NCBI RefSeq assembly: GCF_965641715.1
Contig: NZ_OZ282458.1
Reading direction: 5' to 3' (one strand)
From: Escherichia coli
GTDB lineage: Bacteria > Pseudomonadota > Gammaproteobacteria > Enterobacterales > Enterobacteriaceae
Length of the DNA stretch: 7,176 bases
Shown: positions 3,520 through 7,074 of the stretch, in pieces
How the letters are laid out: each line of letters opens with the position of its first letter
Position numbering within the stretch: the stretch's first letter is position 1
Notes under the pieces: model-generated
Seen by the model: only the letters and a program-made list of their open reading frames with translations
Told to the model about the DNA's origin: nothing
Database searches by the model: none
Position numbers and translations under genes: made by a program

Positions 3520-4581
3520 TTACTTTATTTCATCAAACAGGTGAGATGCAGTATAATAAACGCTTTGATCAAAGCGTCTCTCTGGGCTTAATTTATTTTG
3601 CCCGCCATTTAAAATTATTTCTTTTAATACTGATGGTGGAAGGATGGGTTTTGTTCTTCTTGGGTGATCCATATAAGCTTTTGTTATTTTTCCGTTTAGC
3701 GAGAACTCTTTATCACTTTGATATCCAAAGTTCATCTCAGTATAAATTCTATTGATGTTTGTCTTGTTTTTGCTCGCAATTTCATACACCATTCTGGCGA
3801 GTCTGGCTGATGATCTCATTAGTCTGCTGGCAGATGAATTGTTATATGAGGATCTATCAATAAAGGTTCGACACAAAGCAAAATCACTCCAGATGAATAT
3901 GTCAAAGGCATTTTGATCTAATATTGGGCTCTTGCCTTTTGTTTTCCATAATGGTTGCATTAAAAAAGGTTTCTGGTAATCAAGAAAATTTTCTTGGAAA
4001 GTGTTTAGGCAATTTAATATATTTTCTTTCTTTGAAAGAACTTCAGTTTCATTCCCCCAGTGCTGTATGCTTTCGCATGTGGATTCAAATATTTTTCTTA
4101 TTTCATGGAATTTATCGCTGCAAGAGTGCATTATGCCAAGGGCACAATAAGAAGTGCTTGCAGGTCTTATTACAATCTCTGAACTCCATTCGCTCTCGTT
4201 TTCTTTATATGTCGTGCTATCTGGGAGTACGGTTAATTTTATTTCTAGTGCTTTTAAAAAACTATTGTTTCCTTTTATAACTAGATCTATTCCTTTTATG
4301 TCATCATAAGCATACTGTTGGTATGGTTCATATTTTTTCTCAAATTGAAATTCAAGATCACTATTTTTTAATGTTGTGTTAAAAACGAAGTCAAAAGATA
4401 CTTCTTTGGCATGCACTTTTAAATCCTTATCTAAATAAAGATAAATCGGATTCATTTTGTTGTCTCTCATATAACATGCTAGAGAGGTGGGAAAAGAACT
4501 GTTAAATTGGTTCTTTCCCCACAGATCGCTCTCTTTCCTGTTGGTGTTTTTTAAACCATAAAGAGATTCTATTTTGCTCAC
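3520..4581 (-). CDS. Putative Type II restriction endonuclease, PD-(D/E)xK-like
   Basis: 353-aa ORF divergent from the C5-methyltransferase gene. GTG start at 4581 preceded by AGGAG with 6-nt spacing. Translation contains D99 (GIDLVIK) then 13 residues to E113-I-K115 (ALEIKL), the spacing expected for a PD-(D/E)xK catalytic core. AT-rich. No match recalled to a named enzyme. Confidence is about 0.85 that it is a real gene, about 0.55 for the function. Confidence 0.6.
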   Translation of the reverse strand: MSKIESLYGLKNTNRKESDLWGKNQFNSSFPTSLACYMRDNKMNPIYLYLDKDLKVHAKEVSFDFVFNTTLKNSDLEFQFEKKYEPYQQYAYDDIKGIDLVIKGNNSFLKALEIKLTVLPDSTTYKENESEWSSEIVIRPASTSYCALGIMHSCSDKFHEIRKIFESTCESIQHWGNETEVLSKKENILNCLNTFQENFLDYQKPFLMQPLWKTKGKSPILDQNAFDIFIWSDFALCRTFIDRSSYNNSSASRLMRSSARLARMVYEIASKNKTNINRIYTEMNFGYQSDKEFSLNGKITKAYMDHPRRTKPILPPSVLKEIILNGGQNKLSPERRFDQSVYYTASHLFDEIK

Positions 4582-4668: not shown

Positions 4669-5826
4669 ATGAGAATAATTGATCTTTTTAGTGGGTGTGG
4701 GGGGTTATCCCTAGGCTTTTTGAAGGGGGGGTTTGATGTTGTAGGTGCTTATGATTTCTGGGATCCTGCTATTGAATGTTACAGAGATAATTTTAGCCAT
4801 CCGATAAAAAAACTAGATTTGAGCAATGTTGATGATGTGGTGAGGGAGCTTAAAGATATAGACTTCGATATGATTATTGGAGGGCCTCCTTGCCAAGACT
4901 TCAGTCATGCAGGTTTAAGAATTGAAGGTGCTAGAGCTAACTTAACTCGCTCATTTTCAGAAATTATAAAAAGAATAAAGCCAAAGTGGTTTGTGATGGA
5001 AAATGTAGATCGGGCATTAAGAAGTGGTGCCTATTTAGAAGCTCGAGGAATCTTTAAAGAATCAGGGTATGGGTTAACAGAAATTGTTTTGGATGCCAGT
5101 AAGTGTGGTGTTCCGCAAAAAAGAAAAAGATTATTTGTAATTGGAAAGCTTGACGTGAGGGATGGTTTTATCCTTAACGAAGTGATGTGCGGGATATCGA
5201 AAGATAGTATGACAGTTAGAAATTATCTTGGTGATTCATTGGGGATTGAGTATTATTACAGACATCCGAGAAATTATAACAGAAGGGCTATTTTCTCTAT
5301 TGATGAACCTGCGCCAACAGTAAGAGGGGTTAATAGACCGATACCTGATGGATATTTAGGGCATGCAGGCGATCCTGTCAGTATTTCTGAGAATGTAAGG
5401 CCATTAACAACCTTTGAAAGAGCAAGATTGCAAACATTTCCTGAAGACTTTAAATTTAAAGGTGCAAAAACAAATTTGGAGCAAATGATAGGTAATGCTG
5501 TTCCGGTTGAGTTAGCAAAATATGTTGCGGTGACAATCATGGAGTATGAAAAAAAACAAGTAAAAGGTATTTATGATAAAGAAGGCTTTAGGGCGTGGTT
5601 GCTGAATGAAAAGAAACTAACAAAAAGAACCTCTAGCGATATTATATCTAGATGTTGCAGAGGTGTTTCATTTTTTGATTCAGAGGGGGTGGATTTTTAT
5701 AACTGTGAAATAGATGAAATTATTATGAAACTGGAAAGGCTTGAATCGTTTGTCAGGCTTGGGGTTAGCCTGAAGTCTCAGTTAAGAAGGGCTTTTAAAT
5801 TATATTACGAATATTGTCGAAGGTAA
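4669..5826 (+). CDS. DNA (cytosine-5)-methyltransferase with a C-terminal extension of about 95 aa
   Basis: All canonical C5-MTase motifs in order: motif I FSGCGG (aa 7-12), motif IV GGPPCQDFS (catalytic Cys75), motif VI ENV (aa 111-113), motif VIII QKRKR (aa 150-154), short target-recognition region, motif IX RPLTTFERARLQTFPEDF, motif X GNAVPVELAKYVA. About 95 further residues follow motif X. Confidence 0.92.
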   Translation: MRIIDLFSGCGGLSLGFLKGGFDVVGAYDFWDPAIECYRDNFSHPIKKLDLSNVDDVVRELKDIDFDMIIGGPPCQDFSHAGLRIEGARANLTRSFSEIIKRIKPKWFVMENVDRALRSGAYLEARGIFKESGYGLTEIVLDASKCGVPQKRKRLFVIGKLDVRDGFILNEVMCGISKDSMTVRNYLGDSLGIEYYYRHPRNYNRRAIFSIDEPAPTVRGVNRPIPDGYLGHAGDPVSISENVRPLTTFERARLQTFPEDFKFKGAKTNLEQMIGNAVPVELAKYVAVTIMEYEKKQVKGIYDKEGFRAWLLNEKKLTKRTSSDIISRCCRGVSFFDSEGVDFYNCEIDEIIMKLERLESFVRLGVSLKSQLRRAFKLYYEYCRR

Positions 5827-5886
5827 TAAATACGAATTTATGTCTCTCAGGGGAGGGGGAGGGGATAAAAAGATCAAAGGATCCTC

Positions 5887-5915
5887 TTGTGATCCTTTTT
5901 TTCTGCGCGTAATCT
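5887..5915 (+). promoter_or_regulatory. RNAII (primer) promoter: -35 TTGTGA (5887-5892), 17-bp spacer, -10 TAATCT (5910-5915)
   Basis: Collinear with the pMB1/ColE1 RNAII promoter (cttcTTGAGAtcc...cgTAATCTgctgcttGcaaac). Predicted start at G5923. Confidence 0.7.
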
Positions 5916-5922
5916 GCTGCCT

Positions 5923-6470
5923 GTAAACAAAAAAACCACCGCTACCAACGGTGGTTTGTTTGCCGGAATCTAGAGCTACCAACTCTTTCTTCCGAAGGTA
6001 ACTGGCTTGGTGGAGCACAGATACCAAATACTGTCCTTCTAGTGTAGCCGCAGTTAGGCCACCACTTCAAGAACTCTTAATATCTCAATCCACCTTGTCC
6101 AGTTACCAGTGGCTGCTGCCAGTGGCGCTTTGTCGTGTCTTACCGGGTTGGACTCAAGACGATAGTTACCGGATAAGGCGCAGCGGTCGGGCTGAACGGG
6201 GGGTTCGTGCACACAGCCCAGCTTGGAGCGAACGACCTACACCGAACTGAGATACCAACAGCGTGAGCTATGAGAAAGCGCCACGCTTCCCGAAGGGAGA
6301 AAGGCGGACAGGTATCCGGTAAGCGGCAGGGTCGGAACAGGAGAGCGCACGAGGGAGCTTCCAGGGGGAAACGCCTGGTATCTTTAAGTCCTGTCGGGTT
6401 TCGCCACCTCTGACTTGAGCGTCGATTTTTGTGATGCTCGTCAGGGGGGCGGAGCCTATGGAAAAACGCC
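5923..6470 (+). ncRNA. RNAII replication primer precursor of the ColE1-type replicon (3' end approximate)
   Basis: Long near-identity to the pMB1/pUC ori sequence (GTAAACAAAAAAACCACCGCTACC...GGGGAAACGCCTGGTATCTTTA...GGAGCCTATGGAAAAACGCCAGC) with clustered substitutions in the 5' stem-loops. Confidence 0.8.
5925..6034 (-). ncRNA. RNAI antisense copy-number control RNA (about 108 nt)
   Basis: Reverse complement begins ACAGTATTTGGTATCTGTGCTCCACCAAGCCAGTTACC... and ends at the GCGGTGGTTTTTTTGTTTAC terminator, as in pMB1 RNAI. Promoter on the minus strand: -35 TTGAAG and -10 TACACT within 6035-6070. Confidence 0.8.
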
Positions 6471-6480
6471 AGCGGCGTGG
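6440..6480 (+). other. Approximate replication origin (RNAII-to-DNA transition) of the ColE1-type replicon
   Basis: Position inferred by collinearity with the pBR322 origin relative to rop and the conserved ggagcctatggaaaaacgccagc block. Exact nucleotide not determinable here. Confidence 0.5.
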
Positions 6481-6882: not shown

Positions 6883-7074
6883 TCAGAGGTTTTCACCGTC
6901 ATCCCCGAAGCGTGCGAGGCAGCTGCGGTAAAGCTCATCGGCGTGGTCGTGAAGCGATTCACAGATGTCTGCCTGTTCATCCGCGTCCAGTTCGTTGAGC
7001 TTTTCCAGCAGCGTTAATGTCTGGCTTCTGATAAAGCGCGCCATGTTAAGGGCTGTTTTTTCCTGTTTAGTCAC
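6883..7074 (-). CDS. rop: Rop/Rom (RNA one modulator), 63 aa, GTG start
   Basis: Translation VTKQEKTALNMARFIRSQTLTLLEKLNELDADEQADICESLHDHADELYRSCLARFGDDGENL is identical to pBR322 Rop as I recall it. GTG at 7074 preceded by GGAGG with 5-nt spacing. The track's extension to 7170 is the usual upstream open frame, not the gene. Confidence 0.95.
   Translation of the reverse strand: MTKQEKTALNMARFIRSQTLTLLEKLNELDADEQADICESLHDHADELYRSCLARFGDDGENL

Follow-up and report, generated by a model that had tools for sequence, protein, structure and literature searches.

The replication control region of this small Escherichia coli plasmid raises the question whether the substitutions that separate its RNAI and RNAII from those of pMB1 confer a distinct incompatibility specificity, so that the replicon may be compatible with pMB1/ColE1 vectors, as had been proposed in a preliminary description of the same DNA. 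Taken as a whole, the best explanation of the locus, and one that we hold to be likely, is a ColE1-family RNAI/RNAII control module that carries the allele of pSe-Kan-type plasmids, with a co-evolved loop I block and a weakened cross-inhibition. In what follows, the window is the whole stretch of DNA that was analysed (7,176 bases).

The plasmid and its control region

The window is a complete small plasmid: deposited E. coli plasmids of 7,166-7,178 bp cover 100% of it at 98.6-98.7% identity, and p2009C_3675-2 (O111:H8, 7,175 bp) has the same gene set and an RNAI region identical to that of the window. The genes annotated in the close relatives code for the mobilization proteins MbeA, MbeB, MbeD and MobC, for a HindVP-family restriction endonuclease, for a cytosine methyltransferase and for Rop, the last being WP_000165985.1 in the annotation of near-identical plasmids and of ColE1 alike; MOB-suite places the window-type replicon in rep_cluster_2350, a cluster that also holds ColE1. 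The window is, in short, a natural, mobilizable ColE1-family plasmid of ~7.2 kb, equipped with mbe genes, a HindVP-family restriction-modification cargo and rop. The features by which a ColE1-type replicon is recognised are present, namely an RNAI antisense to the 5' end of a ~550-nt RNAII which ends at a conserved oriV (coordinates transferred), an encoded Rop/Rom, and a predicted long-range alpha-beta pairing of RNAII, backed by the compensatory changes discussed below.

The positions of the control elements are collected in Table 1. The Rfam model of RNAI (RF00106; gathering score 47) matches the minus strand of the window at 6032-5927, with 65.9 bits and E=8.8e-11, over the full length of the model (1-102). 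In the annotation of pSNC3-Kan, RNA I lies at c129-238, RNA II at 127-670 and oriV at 671-675, the RNA I/II region of this plasmid being stated to be 100% identical to that of pSe-Kan (PMC9282650); these coordinates, with an offset of 5796, give the RNAI, RNAII and oriV positions of the window, which is itself 100% identical to pSe-Kan over 5915-6045 (131 bp, RNAI and its flanks). By this mapping the interval 5925-6034, put forward in the preliminary description as the RNAI/RNAII overlap, is exactly RNAI.

Table 1. Elements of the replication control region of the window (positions are those of the whole 7,176-base stretch).
Feature	Position	Strand	Basis
RNAII promoter; -35 TTGTGA 5887-5892, -10 TAATCT 5910-5915	5887-5915	+	homology to ColE1/pMB1
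RNAII replication pre-primer, 544 nt	5923-6466	+	pSNC3-Kan mapping, homology
RNAI antisense RNA gene, ~109-110 nt; 5' end ACAGUAUUUGG at 6034	5925-6034	-	RF00106, fold, pSNC3-Kan mapping
RNAI stem-loop III, also intrinsic terminator; loop UUGGUAG 5948-5942	5927-5963	-	fold, terminator scan
RNAI stem-loop II; kissing loop UUGGUAG 5982-5976	5964-5994	-	fold, Rfam alignment
RNAI stem-loop I; loop CCACCA 6013-6008, bulge U 6017	5997-6025	-	fold, alignment
RNAI single-stranded 9-nt 5' tail ACAGUAUUU, same in ColE1/pMB1	6026-6034	-	alignment, fold
RNAI promoter; -35 TTGAAG 6070-6065, -10 TACACT 6046-6041	6041-6070	-	homology
Divergent RNAII patch (beta element); core UCCACC 6089-6094	6078-6107	+	alignment, MFE folds, covariation
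oriV, RNA-to-DNA transition site	6467-6471	+	pSNC3-Kan mapping, inferred by homology
rop/rom	6883-7074	-	GTG start, 63-aa ORF, translation

The predicted fold of RNAI (-42.3 kcal/mol, z=-5.4) places three stem-loops after a 5' tail, the MFE and centroid structures being in agreement and every stem being kept; at the 3' end of the RNA, a terminator scan found a stem at 5957-5933 and then a T run. A strict sigma-70 consensus scan called no promoters, and the positions of the RNAI and RNAII promoters are those given by homology: the RNAI promoter segment is 90-98% identical to ColE1/pMB1 in the alignment, while the RNAII promoter, with TTGTGA as its -35 element in place of the TTGAGA of ColE1, is presumably the counterpart of the ColE1 P2 promoter.

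By the established ColE1 mechanism, RNAI would be transcribed from the minus strand, from 6034 to ~5925, and would pair with the 5' end of RNAII (plus strand, from 5923). The two RNAs would kiss at three loops, after which the duplex would nucleate at the 5' tail of RNAI and bar RNAII from the fold that primes DNA synthesis at oriV (~6467); Rop is expected to stabilise the kissing complex.

The RNAI allele of the window is a common and published natural variant of the ColE1 family, already known. A type-specific 71-nt query, spanning stem II to loop I, retrieves 89 plasmids from PLSDB (Escherichia 42, Salmonella 21, Shigella 20), and 88 plasmids in as many of 5,426 complete E. coli genomes; counts taken as a band of at least 99% identity (111 and 131 records) were rejected as overstating the prevalence, since they include partial matches from 7.9-kb plasmids sharing only stem-loop I. 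The 131-bp sequence is found unchanged in independent E. coli and Salmonella plasmids; over this length pO111-110512_6 matches RNAI and its flanks at 100%, as do the kanamycin-resistance ColE1-like plasmids of group C, pSe-Kan, pSBardo-Kan and pSNC3-Kan, which differ from the window in their cargo (Tn602 aph, against the HindVP-family restriction-modification genes) and, in part, in the mob and rom regions. RNA I, RNA II, oriV and rom of these three Salmonella plasmids have been annotated and discussed; PlasmidFinder at default settings leaves them untyped, and plasmids of the pSe-Kan type have been recovered on repeated occasions and grown in DH5alpha (PMC9282650). In the literature searched, no incompatibility experiments on pSe-Kan-type or related plasmids were found.

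Differences in the kissing loops and in the stems

Alignment to the pMB1-derived vector U36911 (ColE1, NC_001371, was also aligned) bears out the pMB1 sequence which the preliminary description had used for comparison, together with the three changes that it cited, that is ccaacggtgg for ccagcggtgg, ggaatctagagc for ggatcaagagc and ggcttggtggagcacag for ggcttcagcagagcgcag. The clustering of the changes is also real, 9 of 113 columns being different in the RNAI overlap as against 8 of 362 in RNAII 6106-6466 (Fisher P=0.008). The flanking primer region, which had been called conserved, is so between 6106 and 6466 (98% identity), but not between 6078 and 6105, where the identity to ColE1 falls to 37% and the window is 13 nt shorter.

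The meaning of the three changes is not the same (Table 2). In loop III the difference from pMB1 is a C to U change at the first, loop-closing position, and U is the ColE1 state. In stem II one base is added to each arm, so that the lower stem grows from 4 to 5 bp and the internal loop from 2x2 to 3x3, with the kissing sequence UUGGUAG kept; the mismatched positions of this stem are flagged in the NC line of the Rfam alignment. In loop I, the 7-nt loop of ColE1 and pMB1 is replaced by one of 6 nt. If loop III is taken as the ColE1 allele, loop I is the sole kissing loop that differs from ColE1/pMB1, and of the three changes cited only that in loop I bears on specificity. A further difference, the bulge of stem-loop I at 6017, is U in the window and C both in ColE1 and in 6,715-bp sister plasmids; the bulge is thus not fixed within the lineage.

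Table 2. Loop sequences of RNAI in the window and in the reference replicons.
Replicon	Loop I	Loop II	Loop III
Window	CCACCA	UUGGUAG	UUGGUAG
ColE1	CUGCUGA	UUGGUAG	UUGGUAG
pMB1	CUGCUGA	UUGGUAG	CUGGUAG
NTP16 (RSF1030 family)	CCUCCA	UUGGUAG	UUGGUAG
p15A-type	CCUCCA	UUGGUAG	different
CloDF13	CUGCGAA	different	different

With ColE1 and pMB1 the window has mechanism and architecture in common, the RNAI being 91-92% identical and RNAII 6106-6466 98% identical; loops II and III, the 5' tail and the outer stems are the same as in ColE1, and loop II and the 5' tail the same as in pMB1. The differences from both lie in loop I, in the bulge, in the internal loop of stem II and in a replaced patch of RNAII (the beta patch), to which may be added the start of RNAII, GUAAAC in the window and GCAAAC in ColE1/pMB1. 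In effect, the window has the RNAI of ColE1 in which loop I has been exchanged, the bulge is U and the internal loop of stem II has been rebuilt. As regards membership of the ColE1/pMB1 group, the 5' tail of RNAI, being ACAGUAUUU in the window, in ColE1 and in pMB1, is complementary to the heterologous RNAII, whereas complementarity at all three kissing loops is broken by loop I.

The nearest relative in loop content is NTP16, which we take to be a member of the RSF1030/NTP1 family and whose deposited sequence served as the reference for that family. Its loop I has the same length as that of the window and is one central nucleotide apart (CCUCCA against CCACCA), and its stem II, with a 5-bp lower stem and a 3x3 internal loop, is like that of the window; RNAI identity is 79%, compared with 92% for ColE1, and the 5' tail, ACAGAUUUU, as well as the sequences of stems I, II and III are different. 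The window does not fall in the RSF1030 (NTP1/NTP16) group, given the different tail and stems and a heteroduplex stability of 63-66%. Nor does it fall in that of p15A, whose loop III is entirely different and whose loop I is one nucleotide off (73% RNAI identity), or in that of CloDF13, all three loops of which differ from those of the window (66-67% identity). On these comparisons the window appears closest to the RSF1030 family by loop content and to ColE1 by overall sequence. The comparison of the folded RNAI with the references finds for loop I a match in no group, so that the loops are not identical to those of any known incompatibility group represented here.

The beta patch of RNAII and the shuffling of half-modules

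The counterpart of loop I in RNAII, a patch that makes up the second half of the loop I module, was absent from the preliminary description. It is the 28-nt stretch of low identity to ColE1 mentioned above. It contains UCCACC, the same sequence as loop I of the RNAI of the window, and UCCACC together with GUCCAGUUACC pairs with the alpha element, the 5' half of RNAII stem-loop III (5997-6014); at the same position ColE1 and pMB1 carry GCUCUGCU, in agreement with the loop I that these two have. When the first ~210 nt of RNAII are given their MFE fold, for the window as for ColE1, a long-range helix between 5997-6014 and 6089-6107 replaces stem-loop III; we take this helix to be the RNAII pairing that Masukata and Tomizawa described as alpha-beta, and that is prevented by the binding of RNAI.

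When five loop types are compared, the two partners of the helix are seen to change together: the alpha:beta pair is GGUGGA:UCCACC in the window, CAGCAGAGCG:CGCUCUGCU in ColE1/pMB1, GGAGGAG:CUCCUCU in p15A, NTP16 and ColD, and UCGCAGAG:CUCUGCGA in CloDF13 (the matrix of alpha x beta cross-duplex energies has no clean diagonal, and serves as context only). Since the helix covaries across the types, loop I of RNAI cannot change alone; in the window the compensatory change lies ~80 nt downstream in RNAII (6089-6094) and, according to the folding models, would preserve the alpha-beta helix. Rather than drift, the allele of the window represents a change that is both coordinated and functional.

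Loop I, the RNAI promoter and the beta patch form one co-evolved block, which recombination has shuffled among ColE1-family replicons, including ColE1-like and CloDF13-like ones. The right-hand block (tail, stem-loop I, RNAI promoter and beta patch) is found exactly as in the window in pU90-3, in plasmid 6 of MINF_8D and in pE400634_8; to its left, RNAI stem-loops II and III are purely those of ColE1 in pU90-3, and the other two plasmids (7.9 kb) have a CloDF13-like left half. In pYZ_2_2_4, stem-loops II and III of the CloDF13-like kind go with a block of the ColE1 type. Every one of the four combinations of half-modules thus occurs in nature, which points to recombination between stem-loops II and I. 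Whether the block can be regarded as a cassette is a further step: we consider it possible, somewhat short of an even prospect, that ~5997-6107 would act as a self-contained, exchangeable specificity cassette, whose swap alone would yield a new compatibility type, the diversity of the family then being combinatorial and generated from two half-modules.

Compatibility with ColE1 and pMB1

The replacement of loop I is expected to remove one of the three kissing contacts with the RNAs of ColE1/pMB1, and with one contact lost the cross-inhibition should drop. Incompatibility with pMB1/ColE1 is probably weakened, perhaps not abolished, and a shift in the specificity of a known element is a plausible description of the locus. 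The earlier argument from the loop sequences is to this extent mechanistically sound, loop I being indeed different; it does not extend to loop III, which is the ColE1 allele, or to kissing loop II, which is unchanged. In terms of equilibrium energies (which serve as context, specificity itself being kinetic), the heteroduplex of the window RNAI with ColE1/pMB1 RNAII retains ~83-86% of the cognate stability. The incompatible pair ColE1-pMB1 keeps 98-99%, and the pairs that ColE1 forms with the compatible replicons NTP16 (RSF1030 family), p15A or CloDF13 keep no more than ~60%.

The co-residence of the two types in natural strains was estimated by inclusion-exclusion, using type-specific segments of 70/71 nt without a common 28-mer, a concatenated query and a bit-matched cut-off. 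Among the 5,426 E. coli genomes, 88 carry the window-type and 152 the ColE1/pMB1-type segment (a set which includes laboratory vectors), and the concatenated query finds 240; no genome therefore has both, where independence would predict 2.5 (Poisson P=0.085). This zero overlap leans mildly toward avoidance, and is not significant, the power of the comparison being too low for a decision. Strain U90 has a colicin E1 plasmid with a ColE1-type RNAI together with pU90-3, whose RNAI departs from that of ColE1 in the loop I module alone; the same strain has pU90-2, an 18.7-kb 'heterodimer' with one copy per allele, the halves of which differ only at an IS66 patch and at the loop I block, a structure that could have arisen from recombination or from an assembly artefact. 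Other strains combine the window-type plasmid with a ColD-type plasmid (110512), with a 7.95-kb plasmid having an identical stem-loop I and CloDF13-like stem-loops II and III (E400634), or with pYZ_2_2_4 (YZ_2_2); from these co-residences it follows that a common stem-loop I and tail are insufficient for exclusion. The record adjoining one of the Salmonella window-type plasmids is an IncY phage-plasmid.

Two readings of these data bear on the use of the origin. The exchange of loop I and the beta patch might be enough for stable compatibility with ColE1/pMB1 replicons (pUC, pBR322), and the window would then represent a fifth orthogonal ColE1-family origin; we give this nearly, though not quite, an even chance. 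It is favoured by the difference of loop I in both sequence and length, which would make kissing there impossible, and by the co-residence in U90, a single strain. The 5' tail, the two loops, the outer stems and the Rop shared with ColE1 speak against it; Rop, moreover, is reported (Dooley and Polisky 1987) to be able to suppress the effects of RNA-RNA mismatches. On the other reading the changes would be neutral for specificity, and loops II and III, the identical 5' tail and Rop would go on mediating a cross-inhibition that excludes ColE1/pMB1 plasmids, so that all belong to one group. This alternative, which we regard as rather doubtful, draws on the identity of loops II and III and of the tail with those of ColE1, on the 91-92% RNAI identity and the 83-86% heteroduplex stability, and on the common MOB-suite cluster; the coordinated change of loop I and beta patch, which has spread as a module and suggests selection on specificity, argues the other way, as does U90. 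The missing natural co-residence among the 5,426 genomes counts for retained incompatibility and, with 0 of the 88 window-type genomes being also of ColE1/pMB1 type, against compatibility, yet the deficit does not reach significance.

The published record can be read on either side. ColE1 and pMB1 constitute one incompatibility group and RSF1030 a different one from ColE1; single point mutations in RNAI are reported to suffice for an effect on incompatibility, a precedent for compatibility and against neutrality of the changes; and directed evolution has shown that loop divergence alone is no predictor of compatibility, which weakens the case for a distinct group (PMC9458437). That the RNAI of the RSF1030 family has loops II and III of ColE1 and RSF1030 is nevertheless grouped apart would be a parallel, but an imperfect one, since tail and stems also differ from ColE1 in that family. 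What likelihood full compatibility and retained incompatibility leave between them goes to partial or asymmetric interference. The differences might finally be noise, due to sequencing or assembly errors or to random drift in a decaying origin; this has practically no probability left, being refuted by the recurrence of the allele (131 identical bp in independent E. coli and Salmonella plasmids, and the 71-nt segment also in Shigella) and by the covariation, with all stems kept and a compensatory change in the beta patch; the repeated isolation of such plasmids, and their propagation in DH5alpha, tell against it as well (PMC9282650).

For now, this is an ordinary ColE1-like control region whose sequence and annotation are already available. 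Its probably weakened, and perhaps lost, cross-inhibition with ColE1/pMB1 would involve a loop I that changes together with a distant element of RNAII, as one recombination block, and this constrains the ways in which new incompatibility types can come about, whether natural or designed. If the block does act as an exchangeable cassette, the replicon and its relatives would form a natural class of origins orthogonal to pMB1/ColE1 vectors; and if the window-type replicon is compatible with pMB1/ColE1, a widespread natural origin would be usable as an additional orthogonal ColE1-family replicon in multi-plasmid work, and its compatibility would help to explain how several small Col plasmids can share one enterobacterial cell.

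Cargo, surroundings of RNAII and relatives

The HindVP-family restriction-modification cargo of the plasmid is replaced by EcoRI restriction-modification or colicin-related genes in relatives whose backbone is near-identical (99.5% identity across half of the plasmid), and the 10,981-bp relatives carry an extra Tn3-family transposon. Upstream of RNAII, the terminator-like inverted repeat, which is also kept in ColE1 and pMB1, overlaps the RNAII promoter at its -35 region. As ColE1-type replicons do not require a Rep protein, the name given to the small reading frame within RNAII in many relatives is probably an annotation artefact.

Features of the window
Feature	Position	Strand	Remark
HindVP-family restriction endonuclease and DNA cytosine methyltransferase	3520-4581; 4669-5826	minus; plus	cargo
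G-rich run	5850-5864		GGGGAGGGGGAGGGG; between RNAII promoter and methyltransferase stop codon
Inverted repeat	5876-5898		AAAGGATCC...GGATCCTTT, then T run
52-aa ORF	6054-6212	minus	within RNAII; PGAP label "replication initiation protein" (WP_071529495.1)
Second divergent RNAII patch	6078-6107		predicted pairing partner 5997-6014

Loop I and the divergent RNAII patch

Compared with ColE1, the second divergent patch of RNAII is 13 nt shorter and only 37% identical; the sequence of RNAI loop I recurs within it and, across the five replicon types compared, loop I and the patch covary, the predicted long-range RNAII helix being kept. The bulge nucleotide of RNAI (position 6017) varies inside the lineage: it is U in the window and in the Salmonella kanamycin-resistance plasmid pSe-Kan, whereas the 6,715-bp sister plasmids of O26/O111 strains have C, as does ColE1.

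Half-modules of RNAI in natural plasmids

The 18.7-kb colicin E1 "dimer" pU90-2 (NZ_CP068037) carries both types of loop I; its two halves are alike except for an IS66 patch and the block (8926-9018 compared with 18271-18377) running from the beta patch, the second divergent patch of RNAII described above, to loop I, which is window-type (CCACCA) on one half and ColE1-type (CUGCUGA) on the other. The plasmid may be a heterodimer, may have undergone gene conversion with the co-resident pU90-3, or may be an artefact of assembly. In natural RNAI genes (pU90-3, plasmid 6 of MINF_8D, pE400634_8 and pYZ_2_2_4), two half-modules combine as mosaics: a stem-loop I block, either window-type or ColE1-type, and stem-loops II and III, either ColE1-like or CloDF13-like, all four combinations of which are found in nature.
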